Virus record (IMG/VR): IMGVR_UViG_3300031965_000040
Span: 1-54,217 of that record
DNA: 54,217 nucleotides
DNA from: a virus
Taxonomy: Duplodnaviria; Caudoviricetes
Direction: 5' to 3' (one strand)
Shown: in pieces, positions 13,071 to 37,902 of the stretch
Layout of the letters: every line of letters begins with the position of its first letter
Position numbering within the stretch: position 1 is the first letter of the stretch
The notes under the pieces: generated by a model
Seen by the model: only the letters and a program-made list of their open reading frames with translations
What the model was told of the DNA's origin: nothing
Databases searched by the model: none
Translations under genes and position numbers: made by a program

Positions 13071-13081
13071 GGAATTCGACT

Positions 13082-18143: not shown

Positions 18144-19093
18144 TTCCGTTTGAAAAGCACCGTTACCACGATGAAAACGATGGCGAGGGTGGAGGAGACG
18201 GTGGCGCTGGTGGAGATGGCGGCGATGGGAAGGGCGACGTTGCGCTGTCCGAGGATCAGCTTAAGTTCGTCCAGTCTCACGGGTTCACCGAGGACTGGCG
18301 GACGCACTTGGCCGGTGACGACGAGAAGCTGCAGAAGCGGCTCGAGCGTTTTGCGGAGCCGAAAGCCATTGTCAACTGGGGGCTTTCGGCCGAGCAGAAG
18401 TTCAAGGAGCTGAGCGAGCAGAAGTCCGGTCCGTTGGCCCGGCCGGCAGACTTGGACGAGGACGCCACGAAAGCCTGGCTCAAGGAGAACAACCTTCCGG
18501 AGACGGCTGAAGCCTATCTCGAGAATCTTCCCGAGGGGCTGGTGATCGGCGAGGACGACAAGGATATCGTGCTCACGTTCGCCAAGAGGATGCACGATCT
18601 GAACGCGCATCCGTCGACGGTCCATGCAGCCATTGGCTGGTACAACGATTACAAGCAAGCCGAGATCGACAATCTGGCCGAGAACGATGAGAGGGCGTCG
18701 ACGGCGACCGAGGAAGCGCTCCGAGCTGAGTGGGGTAAGGACTACAAGCCGAACGTCAAACGCGTTCAGGCTTTGCTGGATGCGCGCTTCGACGAGGAAG
18801 ATGTCGAGGTCATCATGAGCGCCAGGGGTTCAGACGGCACGGCTATTCTGAATCGGCCGTCGGTGATGCAGGCGCTGATGTCTCTCGCTCGAGAGGTCAA
18901 TGACTCGCCCACGCTCCCGGTCGGTGGTAGCGACATGAAGTCGATGGAGGATCGTATCAACGAGCTCAAGGGGCTCATGGGCAACAAGAACAGCGAATAC
19001 TGGAAGGGCGCTAAGGCTGATGGTCTGCAGAATGAGTACCGGCAGCTCATCGAGCAGCGGGACAAGGTCAAGGCTCGGAACAAGGCAGCGTGA
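18140..19093 (+). CDS. Capsid scaffolding protein
   Basis: Acidic helical protein with Gly-rich N-terminus, DWR..LAG, LRAEWG.DY..N, YWKG; upstream of capsid gene. Confidence 0.8.
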   Translation: MIPFEKHRYHDENDGEGGGDGGAGGDGGDGKGDVALSEDQLKFVQSHGFTEDWRTHLAGDDEKLQKRLERFAEPKAIVNWGLSAEQKFKELSEQKSGPLARPADLDEDATKAWLKENNLPETAEAYLENLPEGLVIGEDDKDIVLTFAKRMHDLNAHPSTVHAAIGWYNDYKQAEIDNLAENDERASTATEEALRAEWGKDYKPNVKRVQALLDARFDEEDVEVIMSARGSDGTAILNRPSVMQALMSLAREVNDSPTLPVGGSDMKSMEDRINELKGLMGNKNSEYWKGAKADGLQNEYRQLIEQRDKVKARNKAA

Positions 19094-19234: not shown

Positions 19235-19424
19235 TTGACACTGATCGGCTTTTCAGTTATCTATGATTCCAGTCCGACAACCCGAAAGGCCCGGACACAA
19301 CAGCATCCGAAAGCTGGCCCTGCGAGGGGATTGAAGGCTCGGCGCAACGCCGACAACCCTGAGATCTCTGAAGCGGACAACCCAAGCGGAAGGTCGTTAC
19401 AACCTTTGTTTGGGAGTCTGCGAA
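19235..19424 (+). promoter_or_regulatory. Structured capsid-gene leader with 3 GACAACCC repeats
   Basis: TTGACA at 19235; GACAACCC at 19276, 19352, 19376; hairpins with GAAA/GCGA loops. Confidence 0.55.
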
Positions 19425-20276
19425 ATGGCAGAGTCAGCAGCAGTAGTCCAATATCGTGACGAGCTGGTAGCTGAGTTCGAGCAGCAGCAGTCCCTGGTCC
19501 GGCAATCGACGACCACCGAGGCGACGATCAAGGGCAACCAGGCGACATTCAATGTTGCGGGTTCGAACGGCGCGACCGCGGTCACGCGAGGAATCAACGG
19601 CAAGATTCCGGGACGCGGAGACAACAACACTCAGACAGCGGTGACGCTCGTCGAGTGGCACGACCTCGTCGAAAAGACCGGGTTCAACATCTTCCAGAGT
19701 CAGGGCGATCAGCGTTCGCTGATGCAGCGCACGACTCGGGCGGTCATGAACCGGAAGATCGACGACGACATCGTCACCGAGCTGAATACGGGCACGGTGA
19801 ACACGGGTGCCGCGGTCACGGGGTCCGTCTCTTTGGTCATGAAGGCCAAGACGATCTTGGGCAATGCGAGCGTGCCGTGGGATTCGAACCTGTACGCGCT
19901 CATCACGCCTGCGATGGAAGCCTATTTGATGCAGACCACGGAGTTTGCGTCGAGGGAGTACATCAACCGCGGTCCGTTCGAGAATGCGGATCCGGCGTGG
20001 CGGGACCAGCCTTTGATGTACATCTGGCTGGGTGTGTCGTGGTGCGTGCATCCGAATCTGCCGGGGGCGGGTGGAGCAGCCGAGAAGTGCTTCATGTACC
20101 ACAAGTCGGCGATCGGGCACGCCTACAACTCATCCGACATGGATGTGGACATGGGTTACGACGGTCGGCAGCAGATCTCGTGGGCTCGGTGCTCGCTTTT
20201 CATGGGCACGCAGATCCTGCAGAACTCCGGCGTCGTAGTGATCAACCATGACGGCAGCGCGCTCGCGGCGGCATAA
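19425..20276 (+). CDS. Major capsid protein
   Basis: QY..E....FEQQQS.VR, AVTRGING.IP, MNRKIDDDI, W.GV.W..HPNLP, HKSAIGHA; follows scaffold. Confidence 0.88.
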   Translation: MAESAAVVQYRDELVAEFEQQQSLVRQSTTTEATIKGNQATFNVAGSNGATAVTRGINGKIPGRGDNNTQTAVTLVEWHDLVEKTGFNIFQSQGDQRSLMQRTTRAVMNRKIDDDIVTELNTGTVNTGAAVTGSVSLVMKAKTILGNASVPWDSNLYALITPAMEAYLMQTTEFASREYINRGPFENADPAWRDQPLMYIWLGVSWCVHPNLPGAGGAAEKCFMYHKSAIGHAYNSSDMDVDMGYDGRQQISWARCSLFMGTQILQNSGVVVINHDGSALAAA

Positions 20277-21145: not shown

Positions 21146-21721
21146 ATGAGTCGCGCTGCGATAATGATGGAGGGCGCAGGGTTTGACCTGCGTCCTAAAC
21201 CAACCGCGCATAACTTTCGCGACCTATCTGAGAAACGGTTCGGCAGACTGGTTGCAGTCGGATACGCAGGTCGGTCTGGCGTACATTCGCGGTGGGCGTG
21301 TAAGTGCGATTGCGGCAGCCGTCTCTATGTTTTGGGCACGAACCTTCTCACCGGAAACACGACAAGCTGTGGTTGCGTCCACAGTGAATCAACCGCAAAG
21401 GCAAAATACATTCATGGTCATGCGGTAGATGGCCTCACGAGCGAATACTCTACGCACCGTAGCATGATGGCCAGATGCCACGAGTCGCAATCAATTGGAT
21501 ACGAATACTACGGCGGCCGTGGGATCCACGTGTGCAATCGCTGGAGATTCGGTGAGGATAACAAGACTGGGTTTCAGTGCTTCATTGAGGACATGGGCTG
21601 CAAGCCAGCAGCGGATCTCACAATCGACAGAATAGACAACAATGGCAACTACGAGCCCGGCAACTGCCGATGGGCGACGCGGCAGCAGCAGGCGCTCAAC
21701 AAACGACCCAGGCGGAGGTAG
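21146..21721 (+). CDS. HNH-type homing endonuclease
   Basis: [53 protein letters not shown]. Confidence 0.85.
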
Positions 21722-21727
21722 GCATAG

Positions 21728-22366
21728 GTGGCAACCACACGTTTGAAACTCTACAACGAGGCTCTCAGGAACCTCGGCGAACGGAAGATCGCGAATCTTA
21801 CCGAGAATACTGAGCGCAGGCGCAAGCTCGACGAGGTATGGGACGCAGAAGCCCTCGATACCGTTCTCCAGATGGGGCAGTGGAACTTTGCGGCCAGATC
21901 GATTGCTCTCGAGTTCGAGCCGTCGATCACGCCCGAGATCGGCTACACCTATGCCTTCGAGAAGCCGTCGGACTTCATCCGGCTCATGGGGTTGTGCCAG
22001 GACGAGTATTTTCGCATACCGTTGAATGAGTACGTGACCGACGGCGGGCATTGGTATGCGGATTTGCAGACCCTGTATGTCAGGTTTGTGTCGAACGACG
22101 TTCAGTATGGGGGAGATTACTCGTTGTGGCCGCCTAACTTCACTCGGTTTGCGGGAGCGTGGTTAGCGCATGAGGTCTGTCCAGGGCTGACCCACGACGA
22201 CAGCAAGACGCTCGAGATGGAGAAGAAGATGAAGCGTCGTCTCACGGAGGCCAAGGCTGTCGACTCGATGGAGCAGCCGACGAAGTTCAACGGGCCTTCG
22301 TCATGGGTTTTGTCTCGTCGCGGCAAACGAGCTCGGCAATCTGAGAGCGGGACCACCCTCGACTGA
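21728..22366 (+). CDS. Tail tubular protein A / adaptor (T7 gp11-like)
   Basis: N.AL..LGE..I, WNFA, YAF.KPSD..RL motifs; position. Confidence 0.82.
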   Translation: MATTRLKLYNEALRNLGERKIANLTENTERRRKLDEVWDAEALDTVLQMGQWNFAARSIALEFEPSITPEIGYTYAFEKPSDFIRLMGLCQDEYFRIPLNEYVTDGGHWYADLQTLYVRFVSNDVQYGGDYSLWPPNFTRFAGAWLAHEVCPGLTHDDSKTLEMEKKMKRRLTEAKAVDSMEQPTKFNGPSSWVLSRRGKRARQSESGTTLD

Positions 22367-25029
22367 TGGCCAAAACCGTAGCGCCGGTTAGCCTGGCATT
22401 TAACCGTGGGATAGTTTCCGATCTCGCTCTCGCCAGGATAGATATCGAGCGGATCCGCAGTGCCGCGGAGACTATGACGAACTGGATGCCGCGGGTGCTG
22501 GGTCCGATGATGCTTCGACCTGGACAGAAGCACCTTGGGTCGACGGCAAGCAATGCTTTCGCCAGGTGTATAGAGTTCGTGTTCGGCGTCGACGACTACG
22601 CTCGGTTGGAGTTGACGGACAATCTTCTGCGTGTATGGGTCGAGGATGCTCTCGTCACGCGGGAGACAGTATCCGCCTCGGTGACGAACGGCAATTTTAC
22701 GTCAGATGTTGCGAGCTGGACGGATGCCGATGAGTCTGGCGCTACGTCGCAATGGCTGACGGGCGGGTATCTGGCGCTGCTGGGAGATGGGACGAACTCA
22801 GCTATTCGCCAGCAGGAAGTCACTGTTACCGAGACCGGGACGGAGCACGCGCTTCGGATTGTCGTAGAGCGCGGTCCGATACGATTTAGGATCGGTTCTT
22901 CTGCAGGGGGTGAGGACTTTCTCGCAGAGACGTCGCTCGGGACCGGGGAGCATTCACTGGCGTTCACGCCTACCGGGAATTTCCACATCCAGGTCTCGAG
23001 CCAGCGCAGTTACACGGTGCTCGTCGACTCGATCAATGTCGAAGCGGCGGGGGTCATGACGCTCCCGACACCGTGGGATACAGACGACATTGAGAACGTG
23101 CGTCATTCCCAATCGGGGGATGTGGTCTATCTCGCGGACGGGGCGAATCAGCAGAGAAAGATTGAGCGTCGGTCCGTTACCTCGTGGTCGCTGGTTTTGT
23201 ACGAGCCTGAGACTGGACCGTTCAGGACGATCAACACGTCCAATGTGACGATCGCGACCGATGCGCTCGATGGCGACGTGACGCTGACGGCATCAAAGTC
23301 CATTTTCAAGACGAACCATGTCGGGGCGCTGTTTCGAGTCGCCTCTATCGGGCAGACCGTCAACACGGCGGTTAGTGCCGAGAACACTTTCAGCGATCCG
23401 ATTCGAGTCACTGGGGTAGGCCAAGGCAGAAGATTCAGCATCCTGATCTCGGGCACGTTCACTGCGACGGTGACGGTTCAGTATTCGATCGGTGCGCCTG
23501 GGACGTGGGTCGATCTCGCGACGACCTATACGGCCCCGACGAGCACGAGCCACCTGGATAATCAGGACAACCAGATTATCTACTATCGGATCGGGGTGAA
23601 GACGGGCGAGTTCACGGATGGAACGGCGAATGTCACGCTCTCATTCTCTGCCGGCAGCATTTCAGGGGTCGCTCGGATTACCGAGTACACCAGCGGGACC
23701 GAGGTCGAGGCCGTGGTTCTCAAGGCATTTGGCGCCGGGACAGCGAGTTCTGACTGGTGGGAAGGTCAGTGGTCGGACTATCGTGGCTGGCCGTCGGCCG
23801 TGTCGTTGTTCGAGGGCAGGAACTGGCAGGCCGGGAAAGATGTCCTGAATGGTTCGATTGCCGATGCGTACGAGGACTTCGACGATGAGTTCGAAGGCGA
23901 TGCCGGTCCGATCTCGAGAAGTATCGGTGAAGGGCCTATCGATACCATTCATTGGCTGTTGTCTCTCGGACGGTTGCTGGTCGGTACTGCTATCAACTCA
24001 GCTCGAATAGCGGCCAAGAAGATCGACGGCAACAACATTCTGGCCGCTCGATCCTCGAGCTTTGACGAGCCTCTGACACCGTCGAACTTCGCGCTCAAGA
24101 ACACGTCGGCTCGAGGGGTGTTTGTCGATCGCAGCCTTCAACGGTTGTACGAGCTCAAGTATTCGATTCAGACGAACGACTACGAGCCCGAGGATCTGTC
24201 GTTGGTGTGTCCGGATCTCAACGAGATTGGGATAGTTGGCATAGCAGTTCAGATGAAACCCGATGTCCGGGTGCATTGCTGGCGGACGGATGGGACGGTA
24301 GCAATTCTGATATTCGATAGGGCTGAGAATGTCATTGCGTGGGTCGAGTACGAAACCGATGGCGAGGTCGAGGATGTCACTGTTCTGCCGGGAACAGTGG
24401 AGGATGCGGTTTACTACATCGTCAAGCGGACCATAGACGGGAACACGGTTCGGTATCACGAGAGATGGGCGCTCGAGTCCGAGTGTCAGGGCGGGGCGGT
24501 CAACAAGCAGGCCGATTCTTTCGTCGAGTATTCGGGTGCGGCAACGACGACAATCACCGATCTTGGACACCTTGAGGGCGAGACCGTCGTGGCCTGGGGT
24601 GGCGGTAAGGATCTCGGAACCTATGTGGTAAATGGCGGAAGTATTTCGGGGCTTCCCGAGGCCGTGACGGCGGCGATCGTGGGGCTGAGTTACCAAGGGC
24701 TTTACAAGAGCGTGAAGCCGGCTTTTGGCGAAGATTACGGGGTGCCTCTGAACCAGCGCGGTCAGATCGATCAGATCGGCTTCATTCTGAAAAATACGCA
24801 CTATCAGGCCCTGGAGTTTGGTCCTGACTTCACGACGATGGACAACCTTCCTCTCGTCGAGGACGGGGTGGAAACAGACGAGGACGAGATTTGGAGTCAT
24901 TACGACAAGGACATGATCCCGTTCCCTGGGAATTACTCAACGGATCCGAGGGTGTGCTTACGGGCAACCGCGCCGAGACCGGTGACGGTGCTGTCGTGCA
25001 TTGCGAGGATCGACCGCTCCAACAAGTAG
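22366..25029 (+). CDS. Tail tubular protein B / nozzle (T7 gp12-like)
   Basis: FNRGIVS...AR.D, G....RPG, QSGDV, GWPSAV..FEGR, HLEGETV motifs; 887 aa. Confidence 0.85.
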   Translation: MAKTVAPVSLAFNRGIVSDLALARIDIERIRSAAETMTNWMPRVLGPMMLRPGQKHLGSTASNAFARCIEFVFGVDDYARLELTDNLLRVWVEDALVTRETVSASVTNGNFTSDVASWTDADESGATSQWLTGGYLALLGDGTNSAIRQQEVTVTETGTEHALRIVVERGPIRFRIGSSAGGEDFLAETSLGTGEHSLAFTPTGNFHIQVSSQRSYTVLVDSINVEAAGVMTLPTPWDTDDIENVRHSQSGDVVYLADGANQQRKIERRSVTSWSLVLYEPETGPFRTINTSNVTIATDALDGDVTLTASKSIFKTNHVGALFRVASIGQTVNTAVSAENTFSDPIRVTGVGQGRRFSILISGTFTATVTVQYSIGAPGTWVDLATTYTAPTSTSHLDNQDNQIIYYRIGVKTGEFTDGTANVTLSFSAGSISGVARITEYTSGTEVEAVVLKAFGAGTASSDWWEGQWSDYRGWPSAVSLFEGRNWQAGKDVLNGSIADAYEDFDDEFEGDAGPISRSIGEGPIDTIHWLLSLGRLLVGTAINSARIAAKKIDGNNILAARSSSFDEPLTPSNFALKNTSARGVFVDRSLQRLYELKYSIQTNDYEPEDLSLVCPDLNEIGIVGIAVQMKPDVRVHCWRTDGTVAILIFDRAENVIAWVEYETDGEVEDVTVLPGTVEDAVYYIVKRTIDGNTVRYHERWALESECQGGAVNKQADSFVEYSGAATTTITDLGHLEGETVVAWGGGKDLGTYVVNGGSISGLPEAVTAAIVGLSYQGLYKSVKPAFGEDYGVPLNQRGQIDQIGFILKNTHYQALEFGPDFTTMDNLPLVEDGVETDEDEIWSHYDKDMIPFPGNYSTDPRVCLRATAPRPVTVLSCIARIDRSNK

Positions 25030-25801: not shown

Positions 25802-27446
25802 GCTTCCCACGGTCGTTGATTTCGCTCGTCAGATTCCGGAATCTCGTCGACGTGTCGTTGCCGATCGCTCGGGCCAGATCATCGGGGAGTCTATATCTGC
25901 GGCCGGGGCCAATCTTGCGTCCATAGCCGAGCGTCGTTCTCAGCGGGAGGACAAGTTTGCTTATGCTCAGGCCAAGTCGTCGTTTCTTCGATCCGATATC
26001 GAGTCCAGAAAGACCCTCCAGGATGACGATGACTGGCAAGGATGGGAGCAGCGTTATCGGGAGTCGATGAGTAAAGGGCTCGAGGAGTCTTTGAAAGTTC
26101 TGACCCCGGGTGACAGGGCTCTATTCGAGGTCGATGCGAAGCTCGACATAGAGCGTGGCGCCGAAAAGATCCGCGAGCTCGCTCGAGGTCGTGAGGTCGA
26201 TCAGGCCAGCGCTGATCTCATGTCCGTCCTGGACGACAATCGAGCCGCTGCGTTGGAGGCTGACGAAGAAACACAGCGGGCGATCATAGACAACACGATC
26301 GACGTTATTGGTGCGGCCCAGGAAAGGGGGTATCTGGACGCTGCGCAAGCCGAGTCGATTCGAAGGAAGTGGACGACGGATTTTGCCGAAGGCGCTGTTT
26401 CGATGCTGTCTGCAGCGGAGCGGGTCGAAATGCTTTCGTCTCCGGACGGCACGGTGGCCGAGTACATTCAGCCGGATCGGCGTCTGACGCTGTTGAATGC
26501 CGCAAAGAGAGAGAATCGCGAGATTGTCGTTCGTGGGGAATCGCAGAGCCGTGCCGACTCATTGCTGGGAAAGCACGACAGTGAGACCGCGGCTCTGGTC
26601 GAGGCGCGACAGATCTCGGACCCCGAAGTGCGTGACGCGACCGTGACGAGGGTCAAGGCACGGTTTAGCGAACGTGCTCAGGCCGAGGACGATATGAACC
26701 GGCAAGCGTTTCAGCAAGCTTCAACGTCGGTTGAAGAATCATGGTCTATCGACGGTATCGAGCCGAATGTGTGGCGCAATGTTTTGAATACCTCCCAGCG
26801 GCAGGCATTGGAGACTCGGTCTCGTCAGCTACGGCAGGGCGAGGATCCGAACACCGATGCGGCGTTGTGGCGTGATATACGCAATCAGATCACCGAGGAC
26901 CCGCAGGGCTTCGCAGAGCGTGATCTCATGGCCGACCGGCACATGCTCTCGTTGAACGATTTTCAATGGTTCGTTGAGGCGCAGAACAAGATCAAGGCTG
27001 GCGGGGACGAAGCTAGCAAGCTGTTCTCCGGGGTCCGCACTCATACCCAGATCGTCGACGACACGCTGCGCGAGATCGGCATCGACCCGACACCGAGCCA
27101 GGGATCGAATGCGGCCAGGCAGGTCGCGGAGTTCAGTCGCCAGGTCGATGAGCGCGTGCAGGCTTTGCAACTCGAGACTGGGAGGCCGGCGACGACCCAG
27201 GACGTGCAGCAGATCGTCGACGACCTCGCTGTCAAGGGGGCGACCCGTGGCGGTGTCTTTGGGTTCTTCACTCGTGAGCGGCACCAGTTCGAGCTTGAGA
27301 CTGGCGAGACGTTCACGGTCTCGGATGTTGGCGAAGTCCCGCCGGCCGAGCGTCAAAAGATCGAATCTGCGCTCAAGCGCGCGAATCGCCCTATCAGCGA
27401 TGACGTCGTGCTGTCCCTCTACAACCAGAAGCTCGGTGTTCCGTGA
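25794..27446 (+). CDS. Internal virion (ejection) protein, gp15-like
   Basis: MARLP start, long helical protein, position. Confidence 0.7.
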   Translation: MARLPTVVDFARQIPESRRRVVADRSGQIIGESISAAGANLASIAERRSQREDKFAYAQAKSSFLRSDIESRKTLQDDDDWQGWEQRYRESMSKGLEESLKVLTPGDRALFEVDAKLDIERGAEKIRELARGREVDQASADLMSVLDDNRAAALEADEETQRAIIDNTIDVIGAAQERGYLDAAQAESIRRKWTTDFAEGAVSMLSAAERVEMLSSPDGTVAEYIQPDRRLTLLNAAKRENREIVVRGESQSRADSLLGKHDSETAALVEARQISDPEVRDATVTRVKARFSERAQAEDDMNRQAFQQASTSVEESWSIDGIEPNVWRNVLNTSQRQALETRSRQLRQGEDPNTDAALWRDIRNQITEDPQGFAERDLMADRHMLSLNDFQWFVEAQNKIKAGGDEASKLFSGVRTHTQIVDDTLREIGIDPTPSQGSNAARQVAEFSRQVDERVQALQLETGRPATTQDVQQIVDDLAVKGATRGGVFGFFTRERHQFELETGETFTVSDVGEVPPAERQKIESALKRANRPISDDVVLSLYNQKLGVP

Positions 27447-30400
27447 GCAACGAATACGACGATCTTCTGCAGCAGAACGAATACGACACCCTGCTGCAGG
27501 GACCGGCCGTGCAGCGTCGTAACAGCGTCAGCGGCGTCATCGACCGGAATCCGGATCAGAGTGCTGAAGTCATTTCGTTGTCTCAGCGGACCGGCATACC
27601 GGCCCCGATGGTCGAGCGCAATCGCGAGTCGATCGCGTCGCAGGAAAAGCTCAACGAGTACGACGCGCTACTCGAGAAGTCACCGGCGCTATCCGATTTC
27701 GTTTCTGAGCCAGAGAATGCGTCCGTGGCTCACGACGACATAGCCTCGCTCTCGGGGCTCGAATGGGTGACACAAGCGTTCTCGCGCTCTCATTCATCCA
27801 TGTGGGACACGATCCGGATGGCGCAGGAGTTCTCGGGTCCGGTGCGAGAGGGCGACCGCGAACGGGCTGAGACGTCCATGCAGGAGACCGATTTCGGCGC
27901 CGAGGGCTGGTTTGAGCGCGCGATCGTGGAGAGTGGCCGGGTACTGCCGACAATGGAGCACGCGATCGCCGAGGGTCTCAGGCTCGGTATCCCGGCAGCC
28001 GTCGGCACTGGCACGATCGCGGCGGCCGCCTTGACCCCGGCAGCGGCCCCGGCCGGAGCGGCTGCGGGCTTTACCGTCGGTATGGCCTACGGCACTTTCG
28101 ATGCCGTTTACGATCTCGAGTCGGGGCTCGCGTATCAGGAATACCTGACGATGCGGGACGAGAATGGCGAGTACCTGCTGGACGAGCAGACCGCAAAACT
28201 CGCGGCTCAGACCGTCGGGGTGATCAACGCCGGCCTTGAATCGTTCTCGTTGGGCTACATCGCGAGCAAGATTCCTGGACTTCGCCGCTGGAAGGCTACC
28301 GCGGGGCGTGAGGCAATCCGTCAAGCCCTGGCGACGCCGACGTTCAGGCAGGCGCTCACACGCTTTGCTGGTGCGTACGCGGGCGCGATGGGGACCGAGG
28401 TCACGACGGAAATCCTGCAGGAAGCCTCGACGATTCTCGGTGGCGAGATCGCCGGACGCTTGGCTGAAGGCGAGTTTCAAGGGCTATCCCGGGCCGAGCT
28501 TGCAAATCGACTCGGTGAGGTCGCTGTCCGCACGGCTCAGGGCATGACGTTCATTGCTGGCGTCGGGCCGTCCATGCAGTTCGTCGCCGATGCGCGGCGG
28601 GCGAACCAGGCGAATCGCAACCAAGCGGTGATTCAGGCGCTCGGTGACACGGCGCAATCATCGAAGCTGCGTGAACGGCTGCCGTCGAAGTTTCGCGAGT
28701 ACGTTGCTCGACTTCGAGAAGGCGGTGACATTGACGCGATCCGCATTCCCGTCGAGCGGTTTGACGAATACTTTCAGACCCAAGGCATCGACCCGGAAGC
28801 CATAGCCAGCGAGGTCGGTGCCGGTGAATCGTATGTCCAGGCGCAAGCGGCCGGCACGGATCTCGAAATTTCGCTCGAGGACTATGCGACGAAGCTTGCT
28901 GGAACTGATCACCATGCGGGATTGATGCAGGACATTCGCTTTCGGCCGGACGACATGACGGCCCGGGAAGCGGAAGCGTGGCAGGCCGAGGGCGATCGGA
29001 TCACGCAAGAGCTCTCCGAGGGATTGCAGAATCAGCCGGTGAGTCGGCCCGTTTATGAGGACGTGCTCGGGCAGCTTTTGCAGACCGGGATGGAGCGGGG
29101 CGCCGCGGAGCAGAACGCGACCTTGACGGCTTCGGTGTTTGAAACGTTGGGGCAAAGGTCCGGGGTCGATCCAGCCGAGCTCTATCAACGGTACGGGCTC
29201 CAGATTCAGCGCGAGCAGCCGGAGGTGCTCCGGAACCTGCAGCGATTCGACGTGACGATCGACCCGCTGATTGACAGACTGAGATCAGGTGCTTTGCCGA
29301 CCGACAAGGAAATCTACGGCGACTCGCTGGGTGAGTTTCTCAGATCGAAGGGTGGCTTGCAGGATCAGGGTGGGGATCTGGCCGCGCGCGATGTGCAAAA
29401 GGTCATACGCGGTCTCGTGAAACCGGAAGGGATGACGTTCGATGCAGCGGCGGAGCTGGCGCAGGAAGCCGGATACATCACCGAGCGATCAGAAGATGCG
29501 TTGTTGGATGCCATCGACCGCGAGGCTCAAGGCGAAGCCGTGTTCGTTCCGCAAGGCAACCAGCAGCTATTGGATCTTCGCGCGGCGCTCAACGACTTGG
29601 ATACCTACTTGAAACAGGAAGGAGTCGATATTCAGGCGGCGGAGAATCAGCAGGTTCGCGAGCTGTTGCAGGGGACGACATTCGATCAGGGTATAATTCC
29701 TCCTGTGACCTCCGAGCGGGGACCGGGCGAACAACTCACCGAAGAACAATCCCGTGAGCCCGAAGGTGAGCGCATAGATGAAGCAACCGGACTGCCGCTG
29801 AACAGCGATGGTACGGTAACCGTCTATCACCATACGAGCAAGGAGAAGGCAGCCAAGATTTTAGAGAGTGGAGTTCTTAAATCGGTTGCTGAGCCAGACG
29901 TATACGTAACTACTCGCAGAGAACCTGATACCGGATACGGTGATGCGGCGGTTCCTATTCGCGTTGATCCTTCTGAGCTTGCTCTTGATGACGAATTTCC
30001 TGGTGGGCGCAAAGATTTCAGGTTGTCGGTTGGTAAGCCAGGTGGTTCACGTACAGTTGTTGTAGAACAGAGTTTTGAGCAAACCCGCGGCTCTACTCGC
30101 CGCGGCTCAATCCGCTTCGGCGCCGATCGGCAGTTCAACATCAACCTGTTGAAAGACGCTGATTTAAGTAGCCTTTTGCACGAATCCGGACATTTCTACC
30201 TAGAAGTCCTTGGCGACCTTGCCGAAGCAGAAAACGCGCCTGCTCAGATCATTCAGGACTACGCCGCAATTCTCAAATGGTTCGGCGTCGAGTCGCGCCA
30301 AGCGATTGCTGTTGAGCATCACGAGCAATTCGCGCGCGGCTTTGAAGCCTACTTGATGGATGGAAAAGCGCCGAGCATCGAGCTGCAGAATGCCTTCGCT

Positions 30401-33400
30401 CGGTTCAAGGCGTGGCTAGTTCAGATCTATCGCCGATTATCAGCCTTGAATGTCGAGCTCACGGACGAGGTACGCAGCGTATTCGATCGGCTGGTTGCCA
30501 CTGACGATGCGATAGAGGCGGCGAACGAATCGCAGAACTATATTCCGTTGTTCACGAATGCGGAGGCTGCCGGCCTTTCCAGGGAACAGTTCGAGGCGTA
30601 CCGCAATACCGTTCAGCAGGCTCGAATAGACGCCGAGGAAGATCTCGGCCGCAAGCTCCTGGCCATCATGACGCGCGAGCAGCAGAAATGGTGGAGGGAG
30701 GAAACGGCGAAGATGCGGGAGACCGTCGCGGCCGAGGTTCACGGGATGCGTGTGTACCAGGCGCTCTCGTTTCTGCAGCTTGGCAAAGCACCGGACGGCA
30801 CGGTATCCGAGGTCACACCGGTCAAGCTCTCCAAGGCCATCCTCATGCGTGAATTCGCCTATCCGCAGGAGTTTCTGAACCGGCTTCCCGGGGGCGGCAA
30901 GACGACCGTCTACAGCGTCGAGGGCGGTGTGCATCCGGACGTCATCGCCGGCATGTTCGGCTATCGCGGCACGGACGAGATGATCCAGGATCTCGTCAAC
31001 GCGCGTCCGATGAAAACGCTGATCGAGGCCGAGACACTGGCCAGGATGCGGGAGAAGTACCCGGACCCATTGACCGACGGCTCGCTAGCCGAGGACGCGA
31101 TGACGGCGGTCCACAACAACAAGCAGGCCGAGCTGCTGGCGGCCGAGCTTCGGGCGTTGCGACGGAAGCAGCGCGAGGTCAGGGCGTTTGTGCGTGCTGG
31201 GGAACTCACGGCGGCGCGGGAGCGACGAGAAGCCAGGGAAGCCAATCGTGGGCAACTGCCGGACCTGGACGAGCTCAGGCTCATTCGTGCGGCCTCAGAG
31301 CGCATCGTGGGCGAGCGTCAGGTCCGCAGTATCACGCCGCACACCTATCGGGTGGCCGAGTCCAAGGCGGGGCGCAAGGCGTTCGAGGCGGCGGCTCGGG
31401 GTGATTTTGAGACCGCGTATCTCGAGAAGCGCAAGCAACTGCTCAACCACGAGCTTTATCGGGCGGCGACCCATGCTCAGGAGCAGTCGGAGAAGATCCG
31501 AGACTACTTCAAGAAGTTCGGTAAGCAGCGTGTTATCGAACGGCTCGGGAAAGCCGGTGAGGGTCTCTTGGAGCAAATCCAAGCCATTCTCGAGGACATC
31601 AGTTTCAAGCGCGTCTCAAACCGGGCCATTGATCGAAAGAACGAGGTGCTGGAGCAGATCAAGAACGGCGAGATCGTTGCCGATCAGAAAGCGGAAGCGA
31701 TTCTTCGCGCTACCGGAACTAAAAACTGGCGCGAGCTGACGCTCAACGAGCTCGTCGGCATCCGTGACATCGTGGCTCAGATCGAGCACCAGGCCCGGAC
31801 CTTGTCGGAGGCGCTCGTCAACGGAGAGAAGCGGAAGATCAAGGACTCCGCTCAGGCTATCGCCGATAGCGTTGTGGCCGGGAACGCGCCGATTGCGATC
31901 ACGGTCGGGACTCGCGGGCCTGGAGATACGGGCAAACGCCTTGCAAAGCAAGCCTTGCTGGCTTGGTTGAGGTCCTCAGAGATCGCGCGACAGTTGGATG
32001 GCGGTCTCGATTTTGGAGCCGTGACCCGGCTGATCATTGTGCCGATCCGCAGGGCGTATGCGGAGAAGCTGATCCCGATGCAGAAGAAGGCGCGCGAGGA
32101 TGTTGCCGACCTGTATCGGGCACACTTCACGAACAGCGAACTTTCAGGCCTCAGTCGCCGGGAGCATATCCAGGAGCTTAATCTGTCGTTGACTCGCGGT
32201 GATCTGATCTCGCTGGCGCTGAATTGGGGGAATGAGGGAAATCGACAAGCGCTGCTGGATTCTGAATTCGAGGGCGGGCGTCTCTATCCAGAGGCCGGTA
32301 TCACGCAAGCGATCAGCCGGCTCAATGCGCGGGAACTTGCGTTCGTGCAGGCCATGTGGGACTACATCGATACCTACTGGGCCGATATTGCTGCACTCGA
32401 GAAACAGCGGCGCGGCATCTCGCCCAAAAAGGTAGAGGCATCGCCATTCGTTGTTCAAACCGCGGACGGCCCGGTCGCGATGCGCGGCGGATACTATCCG
32501 TTGAAGTACGATGCCGTGCTCTCGGCCATGCAGAAGTCAGACGACGTCGAGACCGAATTCAAGCACTTCACGCAAGGGCGGTTCACGACGGTGTCAACTC
32601 GAGCCGGGGCGACGCATGAGCGTGTCGGATCTGGGAAGCGCGCGGTACGGCTTGGGCTTGGTGTCATCGATCAGCATCTCCACGAGATCACCAGGGACAT
32701 TGCGCTCGGGAACGAGGTCGGGTTCGTCAATCGCGTGCTTCACGATCGCACGCTCCAGTCGGCGTTCGCAAAGACGGGGAATTCGGAAGCGCTGGCGGCG
32801 CTGAAGCTATGGCTGCAGGACGCGGCGGTCGGTGAGATTGCGGCGCGCGGCATCGTGAACCAGTCCGCTGCGTGGGTCCGCGTCGGGTTCACGAAGGCCA
32901 AGCTCGCATGGAACATGACGACCACGTTGCTACAGGTGACTGGTCTGCCTCAAACGATGGTGGTCGTGGGTCAGCGTGCTTTTGCTCACGGTGCCGGCAA
33001 GTTTGCATCCAATCCGCGGGCGATGCACCGGCACATCATGGAGCAGTCCGCGTTCATGCGGGCCCGGTATCAAACGAACTCATGGAACAAGGACGTTTCC
33101 GACACCAAGGCGTACCTAGAAGCGTACTTCGGCGGGGTGCCGACGCGCACCAAAACCTTCTGGAATGCGGTGTCGTACTCCTATTTCTGGCCGATCGCGC
33201 GCATGCAAATGGGCGTCGACGAGGTGACGTGGCTTGCCGGTTATTGGAAAGGCGTCTCGGAGCGAAGCCTTTCTGACGCGGATGCCGTGCTGTATGCGGA
33301 CACCATCGTCGAGAACGCTCAGACGTCGGGCTTTTTCTCCGATCGGTCGGCGGTTGAGAGAGGCTCCCTCGATACCACGACGGCTCGCCAAGCGCAGTAC

Positions 33401-33922
33401 GTGAAGCTCTGGACGACGCTCATCTCCTACATGTTGGCAAAATCCAATATCGCTTACGCAAAGGGGCGCGCGTTCATTCGAGAGCCTACGCTGTGGGGTG
33501 CAACCACATTGGCGGCCGACCTGATCATGCTCTACACGGTCGAGGGCCTGATGGCAGCAGCAGTTCGAGGCCATTTGCCGGATCCCGATGACGAGGAATC
33601 GTGGATTTGGTGGCTGCTCAAGGAGTCCGCAGCCTCTCTGATGTCCGGCATTCCGTTCTTGAGAGAAGTGCAATCGGCCAAGTTCGGGTCCGGCAATACC
33701 CCGATGGGGAGTGTTGCGACCGATCTCTATAAAACGATGGAGCAGGCACAGCAAGGCGAGATCGATCCGGCGATGATCAAAGCCTTCAACAACGTCGGCG
33801 GCACCTTGTTCCACTACCCGAGCTCGCAAACGAATCGCGCGATCGATGCTTACTGGGCTGAGAACGTGGAAGGCGAGGACGTGTCGTTCTACGAGTACAT
33901 CATTGGGAGACGACGAGAATGA
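27443..33922 (+). CDS. Giant ejection / polyvalent protein (gp16-like) with an ART-like insert and an HExxH module
   Basis: 2159 aa; VYHHTS..A.KILESG.L...VYVTT segment; DLSSLLHESGHFYL...HEQFARGFEAYL; GGYYPLKYD; hydrophobic C-terminal region. Confidence 0.8.
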   Translation: MSNEYDDLLQQNEYDTLLQGPAVQRRNSVSGVIDRNPDQSAEVISLSQRTGIPAPMVERNRESIASQEKLNEYDALLEKSPALSDFVSEPENASVAHDDIASLSGLEWVTQAFSRSHSSMWDTIRMAQEFSGPVREGDRERAETSMQETDFGAEGWFERAIVESGRVLPTMEHAIAEGLRLGIPAAVGTGTIAAAALTPAAAPAGAAAGFTVGMAYGTFDAVYDLESGLAYQEYLTMRDENGEYLLDEQTAKLAAQTVGVINAGLESFSLGYIASKIPGLRRWKATAGREAIRQALATPTFRQALTRFAGAYAGAMGTEVTTEILQEASTILGGEIAGRLAEGEFQGLSRAELANRLGEVAVRTAQGMTFIAGVGPSMQFVADARRANQANRNQAVIQALGDTAQSSKLRERLPSKFREYVARLREGGDIDAIRIPVERFDEYFQTQGIDPEAIASEVGAGESYVQAQAAGTDLEISLEDYATKLAGTDHHAGLMQDIRFRPDDMTAREAEAWQAEGDRITQELSEGLQNQPVSRPVYEDVLGQLLQTGMERGAAEQNATLTASVFETLGQRSGVDPAELYQRYGLQIQREQPEVLRNLQRFDVTIDPLIDRLRSGALPTDKEIYGDSLGEFLRSKGGLQDQGGDLAARDVQKVIRGLVKPEGMTFDAAAELAQEAGYITERSEDALLDAIDREAQGEAVFVPQGNQQLLDLRAALNDLDTYLKQEGVDIQAAENQQVRELLQGTTFDQGIIPPVTSERGPGEQLTEEQSREPEGERIDEATGLPLNSDGTVTVYHHTSKEKAAKILESGVLKSVAEPDVYVTTRREPDTGYGDAAVPIRVDPSELALDDEFPGGRKDFRLSVGKPGGSRTVVVEQSFEQTRGSTRRGSIRFGADRQFNINLLKDADLSSLLHESGHFYLEVLGDLAEAENAPAQIIQDYAAILKWFGVESRQAIAVEHHEQFARGFEAYLMDGKAPSIELQNAFARFKAWLVQIYRRLSALNVELTDEVRSVFDRLVATDDAIEAANESQNYIPLFTNAEAAGLSREQFEAYRNTVQQARIDAEEDLGRKLLAIMTREQQKWWREETAKMRETVAAEVHGMRVYQALSFLQLGKAPDGTVSEVTPVKLSKAILMREFAYPQEFLNRLPGGGKTTVYSVEGGVHPDVIAGMFGYRGTDEMIQDLVNARPMKTLIEAETLARMREKYPDPLTDGSLAEDAMTAVHNNKQAELLAAELRALRRKQREVRAFVRAGELTAARERREAREANRGQLPDLDELRLIRAASERIVGERQVRSITPHTYRVAESKAGRKAFEAAARGDFETAYLEKRKQLLNHELYRAATHAQEQSEKIRDYFKKFGKQRVIERLGKAGEGLLEQIQAILEDISFKRVSNRAIDRKNEVLEQIKNGEIVADQKAEAILRATGTKNWRELTLNELVGIRDIVAQIEHQARTLSEALVNGEKRKIKDSAQAIADSVVAGNAPIAITVGTRGPGDTGKRLAKQALLAWLRSSEIARQLDGGLDFGAVTRLIIVPIRRAYAEKLIPMQKKAREDVADLYRAHFTNSELSGLSRREHIQELNLSLTRGDLISLALNWGNEGNRQALLDSEFEGGRLYPEAGITQAISRLNARELAFVQAMWDYIDTYWADIAALEKQRRGISPKKVEASPFVVQTADGPVAMRGGYYPLKYDAVLSAMQKSDDVETEFKHFTQGRFTTVSTRAGATHERVGSGKRAVRLGLGVIDQHLHEITRDIALGNEVGFVNRVLHDRTLQSAFAKTGNSEALAALKLWLQDAAVGEIAARGIVNQSAAWVRVGFTKAKLAWNMTTTLLQVTGLPQTMVVVGQRAFAHGAGKFASNPRAMHRHIMEQSAFMRARYQTNSWNKDVSDTKAYLEAYFGGVPTRTKTFWNAVSYSYFWPIARMQMGVDEVTWLAGYWKGVSERSLSDADAVLYADTIVENAQTSGFFSDRSAVERGSLDTTTARQAQYVKLWTTLISYMLAKSNIAYAKGRAFIREPTLWGATTLAADLIMLYTVEGLMAAAVRGHLPDPDDEESWIWWLLKESAASLMSGIPFLREVQSAKFGSGNTPMGSVATDLYKTMEQAQQGEIDPAMIKAFNNVGGTLFHYPSSQTNRAIDAYWAENVEGEDVSFYEYIIGRRRE

Positions 33923-35934
33923 AACGGATTTTCATTGCCCTGATCGTAGCCGGCTTTGCCGGCTTTTTTGTGCCTGTGCAAAGCCAGATCACGGATCGGC
34001 TTGCCGGCGTCCAAACCGGGTTAGCAGTAAAGGCGCCTGTCAAGGTCGCGACTACTTCCAATATCACGCTCTCGGGCGAGCAGACGATCGACAGCACCTC
34101 CGTTGTAGCAGGCGATCGCGTTCTAGTCAGAGAACAAACCGATGCGACTGAGAACGGTATTTATGTCGTCTCGACCTCAGCATGGACTAGAGCCGCTGAT
34201 TTTGACGGCAATCGAGACGTAGCAAACGGCACGCTTGTAGTCGTTCCTCGTTCTTCTGGGCAAGATTATTTCTACCAGACGGATGCCACAGACCCGGTAG
34301 TCATAGGCACCAGCGAAATAACCTTCACGCTCGCCAATGACCCGAATATCACGTATGACATCACTGACGCCGAGATCGCCGCAGGGGTGACGCCAGACGC
34401 TTCATCTAAACCACCTGGCTACACCACTCGTTACCCTAACGGATTGGCAGATGCTCTGTTGCAAGCTGACGAATCCGGCGGTGCTACAGAAATTATCTTT
34501 GCAGCAAGCGAGACAATAAGCACTGGCCTAACGGCTGCTGTTGATTACCTCGATGTTACCGCTATCGACGGGGCGATTCTGACCTACTCGGGAACAGGGG
34601 TCGCGGTGACTTTAGGCAATGCTTCCGAGGACACTTACTACAATTTATGGGACGTGCCTATAAAGCGCGATGAGAACGAATGGGACGACGGGACAGACAC
34701 CACCAGCATCGGGCTTCAAATAAGACGTATCAGGCATTCGGAGATTTATGCCGATATCGAAAATTTCAACTACGGGCTCAACTCGTTTGGAATTACCGGA
34801 GGGAATGTCCACAACACGATTTCTATCAAACACATTCTCGACAACCGAATCGGTGTGCTTTTGGACCGTGACGGGGCGAGCGCGGGATGGAACAACGATA
34901 ACGAGTTCTGGGGCGGTCGAATCGGCTATCGGTCGGGGACCATAGATACTGCGATAGCCAACTCAATCGTAGTCAAGCATTTATCCCAAGCGCATGCGAG
35001 CGACAACGCAACGGTGCTTTTCGGCACTGCGTTTGAAATATCCGCTACGTCAGGATCGTTGCCCAGCGATTCTAGTGTCCTTGAGATCAACGGACTCGAT
35101 AACAGGATAGCCCCAGGACGATTCGAGAATTCCAATGCCGGCCTGACGCAGTACATCCTATTCGGTGCCAGCTCTGCTCGTAATGTGATTGAGTTCGGCC
35201 GTTACCAGCTCAGCATTTCCACGGCTGATTTCGTGAACGATCTTTCCGGGACTGCCTCGACTAATAGAGTGTTCGGCTTCAACAGCACTTGGAACTACGG
35301 TCCCCACACGAGAATAGTGGTTGGGGCTATCGAAGCCACTGGTAGACCATCATCTGCTAATTACGGCGGCGATGACGATTCCGAAGCCAGTGTGGTGGCT
35401 AGAAACTTGAACTCGTCCGCAAGTCGAGTGTGGGCCGGTAAAAGCAGCTCGACCGACATTACCTCGTCCATCCTCGGCACGGGTAGAACTGGAATTGGCA
35501 AGGATGCTGTCGCGAATATGGGCATGCTCCAAGTCCACAACCCGATTACCTCTGGAGGGACTGACGAAACCCGTTCGTGGAACGTCATGCCGTTTTTGGA
35601 GGCGACTACCGATGATAGTGGAGATGCCGAGAATTTCGATTCCGTGACCATCCCCATAAACTCGATCACTTGGGTGAAGGTGCGGACAATGGCTCGGTAC
35701 GATGACGGGACTAAGTTCTGGTTGGAGGACAGAATTGCCCTGATAGAAAGAGGGGCTGGTGCTGCGGCTGTTTCTCAGCAATCTCAGGTCTCGGTTCTCG
35801 ATCCAGATACCGCTGGAGTGACTGCGGTAGTACAGGTTCCAGGCAGCCAGCTTCAAATGCTGTTGACTGGAGTGGCCGCCACCGCAATCACCTTCATGGG
35901 GACTATCGAGTGGCAGACGTATACCGATGATTGA
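33919..35934 (+). CDS. Tailspike/tail fibre with an apparent N-terminal signal peptide
   Basis: ATTSNITLSGEQTID...GDRVLV..QT...ENGIYVV..AWTRA.D attachment domain followed by a beta-helix region; preceded by MKRIFIALIVAGFAGFFVPVQS|Q. Confidence 0.8.
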   Translation: MKRIFIALIVAGFAGFFVPVQSQITDRLAGVQTGLAVKAPVKVATTSNITLSGEQTIDSTSVVAGDRVLVREQTDATENGIYVVSTSAWTRAADFDGNRDVANGTLVVVPRSSGQDYFYQTDATDPVVIGTSEITFTLANDPNITYDITDAEIAAGVTPDASSKPPGYTTRYPNGLADALLQADESGGATEIIFAASETISTGLTAAVDYLDVTAIDGAILTYSGTGVAVTLGNASEDTYYNLWDVPIKRDENEWDDGTDTTSIGLQIRRIRHSEIYADIENFNYGLNSFGITGGNVHNTISIKHILDNRIGVLLDRDGASAGWNNDNEFWGGRIGYRSGTIDTAIANSIVVKHLSQAHASDNATVLFGTAFEISATSGSLPSDSSVLEINGLDNRIAPGRFENSNAGLTQYILFGASSARNVIEFGRYQLSISTADFVNDLSGTASTNRVFGFNSTWNYGPHTRIVVGAIEATGRPSSANYGGDDDSEASVVARNLNSSASRVWAGKSSSTDITSSILGTGRTGIGKDAVANMGMLQVHNPITSGGTDETRSWNVMPFLEATTDDSGDAENFDSVTIPINSITWVKVRTMARYDDGTKFWLEDRIALIERGAGAAAVSQQSQVSVLDPDTAGVTAVVQVPGSQLQMLLTGVAATAITFMGTIEWQTYTDD

Positions 35935-35958: not shown

Positions 35959-36420
35959 ATGAAAATCACTCTTTACACCTTAGCTCATCGATTCCGCGGG
36001 ATGAAGGAAATTGCGGGAGAAAAGGACCAGCCGTTCATCGTGTGGTGTCATTCGTTGTGCGGGCTTGGGATCGATCAGCCAGACGAAACGCCGTGGTGCA
36101 GTTCTTGGCTGAACGGGCTCGCATTCCTGCTTGGCCTGCCGCGCTCTGAGAGTGCTGCGGCACGATCCTGGCTCGAGGTAGGGAAGCCCGTTTTTGCAGA
36201 CGAGGCGCGCCCTGAGTTCGACGTGGTGGTTTTCAAGCGGGGTCCAGACCCTCAGCCTGGCCCGGAAGTGACTCGCGGAGCTCCTGGGCATGTCGGGCTG
36301 TTTGCCGGTGAGGACACCAACGGCGAGATTCTAGTGCTTGGGGGCAATCAGGGGAACACGGTCTCGATACAGCGATTCCCGGCTAATCGATTGTTGGGTA
36401 TTCGGAGGTTATATGATTGA
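35959..36420 (+). CDS. NlpC/P60 (TIGR02594-like) peptidoglycan hydrolase, probable endolysin
   Basis: DETPWCSSW, ARSW, GHVG, LGGNQ.N.V motifs. Confidence 0.85.
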   Translation: MKITLYTLAHRFRGMKEIAGEKDQPFIVWCHSLCGLGIDQPDETPWCSSWLNGLAFLLGLPRSESAAARSWLEVGKPVFADEARPEFDVVVFKRGPDPQPGPEVTRGAPGHVGLFAGEDTNGEILVLGGNQGNTVSIQRFPANRLLGIRRLYD

Positions 36421-36613
36421 TTCAGGTTGGCGTACTTCTACAAATGCTGCCCTCGCTGGCGGTCTTGCCGTCATCGTGATTTCGCTTCTACGGTATTTCG
36501 CCCCCGAGTTCATGGCGAGCTCGCCTGACGGGCTTGAAATTGGGCTGGCGGGCGTGTTCGTTTGGCTCATTGCGCGCGCCTCCAAGACGCCTGCGACTCC
36601 CGGAAAGCTGTGA
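36413..36613 (+). CDS. Putative holin
   Basis: 66 aa, two hydrophobic segments, GGAGG SD, between lysin and spanins. Confidence 0.65.
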   Translation: MIDSGWRTSTNAALAGGLAVIVISLLRYFAPEFMASSPDGLEIGLAGVFVWLIARASKTPATPGKL

Positions 36614-36858
36614 TCAAGCTTTGGAGCGCCATCAAAAGCGGTGTCATGTGGCTGGTCGCCGCTATCGTCGCTTTGGCCGTGTTGCTGTTCGGTGCTCGAC
36701 GATCAGGACGCGATGCCGAGCGCGTCGAGAGACTGGAAAGCGAACAGGCACGAGCCCGGGAAACCGATGAGGTCAAAGATGAACAGCTCGAAGCTGCGGC
36801 TCACCGCCCTCGTGATCGTGCTGAGCTTGATCGCCGGATGCGGAACGGCCCATTTTGA
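36610..36858 (+). CDS. i-spanin (Rz-like)
   Basis: N-terminal TM followed by a charged coiled-coil; overlaps a lipoprotein gene. Confidence 0.7.
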   Translation: MIKLWSAIKSGVMWLVAAIVALAVLLFGARRSGRDAERVERLESEQARARETDEVKDEQLEAAAHRPRDRAELDRRMRNGPF

Positions 36859-37021
36859 ACGGCCGTTACCAGCGTGTCCGGTAGTCGTAGAGTACGAGCA
36901 GAATCTTCTCAACCGTGCTGCCGATGAGCTTTGGCTGCTGCCGGCCGACAGCGCGATTGACCAGATGCTCAGGGACTTCGCCGTGATGCGAGCCCAGGCC
37001 CGCTCTTGCCGGAGGCTGTGA
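36779..37021 (+). CDS. o-spanin lipoprotein (Rz1-like)
   Basis: Lipobox LIAG|C, CPVVVEY, overlaps the i-spanin in another frame. Confidence 0.75.
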   Translation: MNSSKLRLTALVIVLSLIAGCGTAHFERPLPACPVVVEYEQNLLNRAADELWLLPADSAIDQMLRDFAVMRAQARSCRRL

Positions 37022-37429: not shown

Positions 37430-37675
37430 ATGACTAACGGCAACGGCGTGCTATCCATGGTGGAGCGTGTATTGGCTCCTGTTCTCGCAGTAATTGTGAC
37501 CACCATGATTTTCGGCGGGGTCAATCTTCGTGATGCGGTACGCGACTTGCATATATGGAAAGACGAGACCCATCCGCTGCAAACCGAGCTTGCTCACGAG
37601 CAGATATTGACGACGGTGAGATCGAATCAAATGGAGCTTGAGGACTTGAGAGAACGAATCAGGAGATTGGAATGA
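37430..37675 (+). CDS. Small membrane protein (N-terminal TM, coiled coil)
   Basis: VLAPVLAVIVTTMIFGGV followed by LEDLRERIRRLE. Confidence 0.6.
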   Translation: MTNGNGVLSMVERVLAPVLAVIVTTMIFGGVNLRDAVRDLHIWKDETHPLQTELAHEQILTTVRSNQMELEDLRERIRRLE

Positions 37676-37902
37676 GATACCTAGTCGCTTTGGCGTTACT
37701 CTCTCCTGCCGTTGCACAGCCCAGCCCCGAGGACATTGTGCAACGCGCTCAAGAGCTGCTTTACCTCGCGTACATGCGCCCGGACGTGAGCCGATTTTGC
37801 AGCGACAATCCGCAAGCGATCTACCCGATAGAAATTCAGGGAATTACAATCGTGGTGCGTTGCTCGTCGTGGAACGATTGGAACAACGCGCCGAAAGGGT
37901 AG
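37672..37902 (+). CDS. Small exported protein with two Cys
   Basis: MRYLVALALLSPAVA|Q; ATGA overlap. Confidence 0.6.
   Translation: MRYLVALALLSPAVAQPSPEDIVQRAQELLYLAYMRPDVSRFCSDNPQAIYPIEIQGITIVVRCSSWNDWNNAPKG

Follow-up and report, generated by a model that had tools for sequence, protein, structure and literature searches.

A predicted Sec-type signal peptide on the tailspike of an environmental podovirus and its possible place in a lysis-gated last step of virion assembly

We analyzed the IMG/VR virus record IMGVR_UViG_3300031965_000040 at its full length of 54,217 bp, which we refer to as the window. The record is a complete soil phage genome (CheckV completeness 100%, G+C content 59%). 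On its plus strand, from 33919 to 35934, lies an open reading frame (ORF) for a 671-aa protein without cysteine (Cys), which the evidence below identifies as the tailspike of the phage and which begins with a leader resembling a Sec-type signal peptide. The spike gene comes after the genes for tail tubular proteins A and B and three internal virion (ejection) proteins, and before the lysis cassette (Table 1). To our knowledge, the virions of tailed phages are taken to assemble wholly in the cytoplasm, and the phage proteins on which export signals are known are lysis and exclusion factors, not core virion parts. The type of protein is familiar, whereas the targeting signal on it was not expected.

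The ATG of the spike gene overlaps the TGA stop codon of the gene for the 2159-aa ejection protein in the sequence ATGA (33919-33922) and is preceded by a Shine-Dalgarno sequence (SD). The SD/anti-SD duplex at this ATG has a free energy of -7.3 kcal/mol, compared to a mean of -3.0 kcal/mol for the window background, and ranks in the strongest ~12% of sampled window positions. The two in-frame GTG codons downstream, at 33970 (codon 18) and 33976 (codon 20), reach -1.7 kcal/mol each and lack an SD. A first-pass annotation of this DNA had described the ATG as coupled and equipped with an SD, the GTGs as having none, and the 671-aa product as free of Cys; our duplex energies and residue count agree with it on each point. 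Because the closest homologues, P0009 and P0010, carry Ala at codon 20, the GTG there is not a conserved start, and a relative in sediment run X2 has a T-to-C change at 33977. The junction between the ejection gene and the signal-encoding stretch is bridged by contigs of other sediment runs: record 27 of run X5 spans 33851 to 34037 with 10 differences, and record 18 of run X4 spans 33749 to 33933. Because these contigs come from other samples, the junction is real and not an assembly artifact or chimera of a single sample.

If the start were mis-called and translation began at one of the GTGs, then the apparent signal would be an untranslated spacer, and a start at codon 20 would leave four residues before a conserved TDR motif, as in many signal-less homologues. 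We rejected an internal start on its weak SD and its lack of conservation, and we consider this explanation highly improbable, given also that the 22 leader codons are kept in frame in P0009 and P0010 with hydrophobic-for-hydrophobic substitutions and that the properties of the leader recur in 16 other proteins against a chance rate of 0.3%. The upstream ATG is likely the start codon, judging from its sequence context.

The spike N-terminus, MKRIFIALIVAGFAGFFVPVQSQITDR, has an n-region with a charge of +2, followed by an apolar core of ~15 residues (residues 4 to 18; mean Kyte-Doolittle hydropathy ~3.0 over 10 residues). Cleavage is predicted after residue 22, with Pro at -4, Val at -3, Ser at -1, and Gln at +1. 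The charged n-region, uncharged h-region, and -3/-1 c-region expected of a substrate of Sec and signal peptidase I are all present. We scored signals with a simple, untrained heuristic based on the n-, h-, and c-regions; when the window was shuffled, 24 of the 7658 resulting ORFs passed (0.3%), and 8 of the 384 mechanical ORFs of the real window passed, the spike among them. The signal peptide that the first-pass annotation placed at this N-terminus is thus upheld as a signal-peptide-like sequence with all three regions. The leader is a real and nonrandom feature, and on these sequence properties it is most likely a genuine, translated Sec-type signal peptide.

We considered three other kinds of export signal and rejected each of them. 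A lipoprotein signal processed by signal peptidase II does not fit, since there is no lipobox and no Cys in the spike. Twin-arginine translocation (Tat) signals have the consensus S/T-R-R-x-F-L-K ahead of a mildly hydrophobic core; the spike has K-R in place of R-R, and its core is strongly hydrophobic. A signal-anchor-release (SAR) domain was rejected because Gly and Ala account for only 5 of the 15 residues of the core, which is followed by a canonical -3/-1 site.

The position of the leader relative to homologous spikes bears on whether it is cleaved. The signal-less homologues (n = 117) start 3 to 7 residues ahead of the invariant TDR, and the cleaved spike would begin exactly at their start point. 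In 16 other homologues (P0009, P0010, P0011, P0012, P0014, P0017, P0020, P0029, P0038, P0060, P0072, P0073, P0093, P0105, P0159, and P0167), N-terminal extensions of 19 to 33 aa are present at the same point and end right before the start of the signal-less relatives. An alignment of homologous spike N-termini was among the checks proposed with the first-pass annotation, and its outcome favors that annotation: the conserved N-terminal module (N-module) starts right after the predicted cleavage site. The leaders of the 17 signal-bearing proteins are too dissimilar to align, but they are alike in their properties, with n-regions of +1 to +3, cores of 13 to 21 residues, adherence to the -3/-1 rule in 17/17, and Gln at +1 in 16/17. 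A Gln conserved so widely at +1 would have significance only for a chain that is cleaved. P0009 and P0010 are 76 to 84% identical to the spike in the N-terminal part.

The hydrophobic N-terminus might instead be retained as a membrane-active or anchoring helix, serving as an assembly tether or inserting into the host envelope. The AlphaFold2 (AF2) model has a short free helix at residues 4 to 12, with a low predicted local distance difference test score (pLDDT) and unpacked against the body, and the Gly and Ala content of the core is faintly SAR-like. Uncleaved signal-anchor segments are known in phage proteins, namely the SAR endolysins, as described (PMC6116005). We consider a retained helix quite unlikely, however, given the -3/-1 motif and the Gln at +1 in the signal-bearing set and cores as long as 13 to 21 residues; in addition, the positive n-region would put the body in the periplasm anyway, and the relatives need no such helix.

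Relative to the closest syntenic junction, L022, whose ejection protein is 68% identical, the ATGA coupling is kept and the window carries an insertion of ~57 nt that encodes the signal. A further signal-bearing spike, L049, has AGGAG ahead of the leader ATG, and its gene overlaps the upstream ORF by one base. In a tree of the N-module built on 135 columns, the signal trait is scattered: 113 rows require 9 changes, of which well-supported branches force at least 5, and 134 rows require 11. Contigs in sediment runs X2 and X4 match the window only from 33983 on, one codon before Gln23. The sequence upstream of this position is unrelated over at least 255 nt, and its last ten codons are charged and not signal-like. 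Position 33983 is therefore a module boundary at the cleavage site, in line with mobility of the leader junction. Apparent N-terminal matches at two metagenome loci, L116 and L179, were rejected as read-through of stop codons. The contig that holds L049 (1-2634) is 2.6 kb long, strikingly AT-rich, and filed under a Hyphomicrobium metagenome-assembled genome, in which it is probably mis-binned; its neighboring ORFs had no PHROG match.

PHROG models matched the spike at residues ~21 to 156 only. These matches came from 10 families, the best of which was phrog_11518 "tail fiber protein" (E 4e-30), with others named head decoration or virion structural protein; Pfam gave no match for the spike. 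We built an AF2 monomer model from 40 sequences (mean pLDDT 76.6). The model consists of a disordered leader (residues 1 to 32, low confidence), a confident beta-sandwich (~40 to 165), a beta-helix (~190 to 460), and a C-terminal beta-sandwich, with pLDDT of 80 to 97 across residues ~170 to 350. A Foldseek search of the PDB returned 41 matches at E ≤ 1e-3, and the top matches were depolymerase tailspikes of Acinetobacter and Klebsiella phages. Solved phage tailspikes among the matches are Acinetobacter phage Fri1 gp49 (6c72, E 5e-10) and APK09 gp48 (8oq0), Klebsiella Depo32 (7vz3), and CBA120 TSP2 (5w6p), which share with the model a right-handed parallel beta-helix with N- and C-terminal add-ons (E 5e-10 to 3e-7, probability 1.0). 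The solved tailspikes differ from the spike in sequence (identity 9 to 12%, TM-scores 0.25 to 0.34) and in their N-terminal anchors, and no signal peptide is known to us on any of them. The modeled fold indicates that the spike body is most likely a beta-helix polysaccharide depolymerase.

Gene order points to the same identity. Signal-less homologues of the N-module lie directly 3' of ejection-protein homologues in ~45 fetched loci, the N-module occurs as a single copy in this genome, and no other ORF of the phage matched a PHROG tail-fiber family. Together with the tailspike fold, these observations identify the protein as the spike of the phage, as the first-pass annotation had it. The signal-less syntenic podovirus spikes (e.g., L022, L028, L106 to L108, L115, L153, and L182) have N-modules 45 to 68% identical to that of the window in the same place after the ejection proteins, and L022 shares the ATGA coupling; unlike the spike, they start 3 to 7 residues before TDR without a hydrophobic leader, and most have at least one Cys in the N-module. 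Their C-terminal bodies are variable. The N-module is shared by spikes with unrelated bodies, and conversely the C-terminal part of our spike is shared at 38 to 49% identity by P0002 to P0007, which carry other N-termini; judging from these sequences, such exchange of N-module and body is the usual modularity of tailspikes.

The N-module is most likely the tail anchor, given its sequence relationships. It had previously been called a virion-attachment domain; the attachment role is an interpretation, since the domain is also found inside long fibers and in a capsid decoration protein. The domain is very widespread: 23,029 cluster representatives match it at E ≤ 1e-3. In proteins of 2,000 to 4,000 aa (among P0008 and P0121 to P0233), it is often repeated, up to 18 times, and some of these proteins have signals of their own, e.g., P0206. 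At L002, L029, L071, L141, and other loci, a second, short N-module protein (120 to 300 aa) is encoded between the genes for the first and the second ejection protein. On one contig, a short copy occurs together with a long one (L028 and L029); the window has no second copy.

A protein of this kind need not be part of the virion. It could be a secreted enzyme derived from a spike and carried as a moron by a temperate phage, with another, unrecognized protein binding the receptor. The phage is temperate, with an integrase and RecET, and the N-module also occurs in large signal-bearing cellular proteins (L060, L077, L080, and P0206). Exported spike-like proteins exist in bacteria, such as WceF, which we discuss below, and the MAT fibers of Bdellovibrio; the latter are described as having a signal, a conserved beta-rich N-domain of ~130 aa, and a trimeric fiber with variable tips, and they differ from the spike in being cellular surface fibers of a predatory bacterium (PMC10769870). 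We rejected the MAT N-domain as a homologue: it is not detectably related, only 1 of 41 genomes of that class matched, and the domain is internal there. The spike gene is a late-operon gene coupled to an ejection-protein gene, at the exact position of the spike in the ~45 related loci, and no other ORF of the genome has an N-module or a tail-fiber family match. We therefore regard a nonvirion enzyme as very unlikely.

The first-pass annotation proposed that the lack of Cys would fit passage through an oxidizing compartment. We found an association for the N-module, which is Cys-free in 17/17 signal-bearing proteins and in 24/117 signal-less ones (93/117 have at least one Cys; Fisher p = 1e-10, uncorrected for relatedness). 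The signal-less proteins P0002 to P0007, whose beta-helix body is homologous to that of the spike, have 3 to 8 scattered Cys where the spike has I, V, L, G, or A. This pattern fits, without proving, a loss of free thiols in a protein that would fold in an oxidizing compartment. The proposal is right in part. Cys is also absent from the putative scaffold and from all 2,862 aa of the three ejection proteins, so Cys-freeness is a trait of the late or ejected block and not of the spike alone, and other signal-bearing ORFs of the phage are Cys-rich (16, 11, and 5 Cys). The mature chains of the signal-bearing homologues have 0 to 10 Cys, with up to 10 in the C-terminal parts, where Cys density shows no consistent direction with respect to the signal.

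The lysis genes constrain when an exported spike could meet the particles. Since the phage encodes spanins, the host is a diderm with a periplasm; our own reading of the translation places a lipobox-like LIAGC in the spanin region. The endolysin lacks an export signal, and lysis therefore depends on a hole-forming holin that first opens the inner membrane.

We propose that the spike has acquired a Sec signal, is exported, and is attached to virions in a last step gated by lysis, possibly with stripping of receptors. We assign this reading a probability of about 0.5; export of the spike as such is likely, on the sequence evidence above. The precursor would be made late, by translation coupled to that of the large ejection protein, and the nascent chain would be targeted to SecYEG and cross unfolded into the periplasm. 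By the positive-inside rule, the spike body would be placed in the periplasm. Signal peptidase I would cut after Ser22, and the mature chain would then start at Gln23, the start point of the signal-less relatives, and would fold and trimerize in the periplasm. Meanwhile, capsid-tail particles would be assembled without spikes in the cytoplasm. Spikes and particles would come together only when holin action lets the cytoplasmic endolysin through the inner membrane, or at the final, spanin-mediated lysis, such that attachment of the spike would come last and be gated by lysis. The first-pass annotation had likewise inferred export before assembly and a possible delay of virion activation until lysis, and both stand as inferences here.

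While in the periplasm, the spike may also cut nascent surface polysaccharide and thereby strip receptors from the dying cell, with the effect that fewer progeny would be lost on debris and superinfection would be reduced. Phage T5 offers a parallel in Llp, a small exported lipoprotein that blocks the protein receptor on the infected cell and protects progeny. Receptor neutralization is the role proposed here for a periplasmic pool of spike; Llp is neither an enzyme nor a virion part. The most far-reaching version, which we hold as a tentative possibility, is that the sole receptor-binding spike is exported by Sec, matured in the periplasm, and added after holin action, that infectivity is thus gated by lysis, that the enzyme first strips receptors, and that the arrangement arose or spread several times among environmental podoviruses.

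Export might also be partial or saturated late in infection, giving two pools: a cytoplasmic fraction built into virions, and an exported, cleaved fraction that acts as a free periplasmic or released depolymerase in receptor destruction, superinfection exclusion, or easier release. The virion-type N-module is intact right after the signal, so virion incorporation still matters, and for the signal-less relatives assembly is cytoplasmic. The phage also codes for another protein with a signal, 936 aa long and similar to beta-helix polysaccharide lyases (a lead only), which suggests a general investment in exported enzymes that act on glycans. A division into two pools is nonetheless a possible but rather unlikely outcome: the long and very hydrophobic core (mean Kyte-Doolittle ~3) would make targeting efficient, a precursor left uncut would have 22 additional residues at an end that the relatives keep short, and there is no internal start with an SD from which a signal-less form could be made.

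Several observations weigh against export followed by lysis-gated attachment. Assembly that takes place after lysis would have to outpace dilution. Arg27, at +5 of the mature chain, is mildly unfavorable for Sec, although Asp26 comes before it. Signal-bearing spikes are recurrent but rare in the environmental podovirus sequences that we compared: we found none in 20 IMG/VR loci, one in 78 genome loci (L049), and none in 80 metagenome loci, and further IMG/VR scans for signal-bearing relatives added none. Because the trait is this rare, most relatives evidently manage without a signal. The apparent polyphyly of the trait could reflect recombination of a module consisting of the signal and the junction, not repeated invention. 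When relatedness is taken into account, the Cys association reduces to 4 to 5 independent pairs, none of them opposite (sign-test p ~0.125 to 0.25, too few pairs to reach significance), and Cys counts of the mature signal-bearing proteins show no parity pattern.

The precedents closest to an exported spike combine some of its features. In Pantoea stewartii, WceF (6tgf, a Foldseek match to our model at E 4e-5) is a trimer with a tailspike fold and a phage-type head domain after a cleavable Tat signal, and it is active on exopolysaccharide (PMC7949094). WceF thus offers a precedent for an export signal ahead of a spike fold and for a periplasmic protein with the tailspike fold. It differs from the spike in that it uses Tat, which exports folded proteins, rather than Sec, and in that it is encoded in a chromosomal exopolysaccharide biosynthesis cluster and is not a virion protein from a late operon. 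Among phage proteins, Lys44 of fOg44 (with a Sec signal), the SAR endolysins, and the T4 antiholin RI are exported late lysis proteins, and lambda Lom is another exported phage protein that is no part of the virion. As described (PMC6116005), exported lysis proteins are, like the proposed spike precursor, made late and passed through Sec ahead of lysis, with their action released by the holin; unlike the spike, they are not virion components, and the SAR segments are uncleaved.

In the open-access literature that we searched, we found no tailspike or tail fiber of a tailed phage with a signal peptide. The single cultured match examined, the homologue in Vibrio phage vB_VpP_1, has no signal (322 other phage records were left out). 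If the signal is functional, it would imply either a new last assembly step that spans compartments or a second role for the spike as a free enzyme in the periplasm, and the phage would have a simple means of holding particles inactive before lysis and of ridding debris of receptors. Annotators would also be warned against excluding a structural protein on the grounds of a signal peptide. Such spikes could serve depolymerase engineers as natural examples of spikes that fold after secretion.

Table 1. Features of the window in and around the spike gene. All lie on the plus strand; residue numbers refer to the protein named.
Feature	Coordinates	Strand	Basis or remarks
Large terminase	14021-15661	+	PHROG
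Portal	15949-17580	+	PHROG
Putative scaffold	18140-19093	+	PHROG
Major capsid protein	19410-20276	+	PHROG
HNH endonuclease	21146-21721	+	phrog_374, E 1e-58
Tail tubular A	21728-22366	+	PHROG
Tail tubular B	22366-25029	+	PHROG
Three internal virion (ejection) proteins, 153, 550, and 2159 aa	25340-33922	+	PHROG
2159-aa internal virion (ejection) protein	27443-33922	+	phrog_9880, E 0; Pfam LPD22 at residues 25-116; 0 Cys
Shine-Dalgarno GGGAG, 9 nt upstream of the spike ATG	33905-33909	+	Duplex -7.3 kcal/mol
Spike ORF, 671 aa	33919-35934	+	
Predicted Sec-type signal peptide, codons 1-22	33919-33984	+	n-region MKR, apolar core 4-18, c-region PVQS
Conserved N-terminal beta-sandwich module, residues 23-165, presumed tail anchor	33985-34413	+	PHROG, homologues, pLDDT 82-95, synteny
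Neck and right-handed parallel beta-helix, residues ~166-460, depolymerase-like body	34414-35298	+	AF2, Foldseek
C-terminal beta-sandwich, residues ~550-671, then stop codon	35566-35934	+	AF2
Endolysin-like protein, 153 aa	35959-36420	+	phrog_1259, E 9e-21; N-terminus without signal or SAR segment
Holin candidate	36338-36613	+	PHROG matches of the holin and spanin genes: phrog_126, E 0.003; phrog_1026, E 3e-5; phrog_26778
Overlapping i-spanin/o-spanin pair	36562-36858, 36641-37021	+	phrog_1026, E 3e-5; phrog_26778

The structural module, which we laid out by PHROG searches, is T7-like and lies on the plus strand. On the other arm of the genome are genes for an integrase and a replication initiator together with RecE/RecT-like genes, which makes the phage a temperate one, a podovirus with a T7-like structural module. 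No close cultured phage was found, with a best identity of 30% for tail tubular B. An HNH endonuclease gene is embedded in the structural module, with the capsid region on one side and tail tubular A on the other. The 2159-aa ejection protein has its LPD22 domain at the N-terminus, and its translation contains an H-E-x-x-H motif mid-protein.

Other ORFs of the phage also have signal-like N-termini. The first-pass annotation saw the spike as extending a hypothesis of protein export to the tail, which overstates the case: no signal is present on the portal, the capsid protein, tail tubular A and B, or any of the ejection proteins, and the other signal-bearing ORFs had no match to any virion family in PHROG or Pfam. 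Four consecutive, overlapping ORFs on the plus strand (5986-11096) encode proteins of 936, 423, 205, and 141 aa with signal-peptide-like N-termini, the first three of which are those noted above as Cys-rich; none of the four had a PHROG or Pfam match, and no homologue of them was seen in the flanks of related loci. A protein atlas places the 936-aa protein near beta-helix polysaccharide lyases of the PL9/PL6 type (score 0.91, structural match at residues 534 to 924), again as a lead only. A 136-aa ORF (13067-13477, plus strand) has a leader of the twin-arginine type, K-R-R-T-F-I-Q, and an apolar stretch ending in A-E-A; with no family match, its sequence suggests that it is likely a Tat-exported protein. 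Right after the lysis cassette, a 76-aa ORF (37672-37902, plus strand), also lacking a family match, has a signal-like leader that ends in A-V-A before Q-P.

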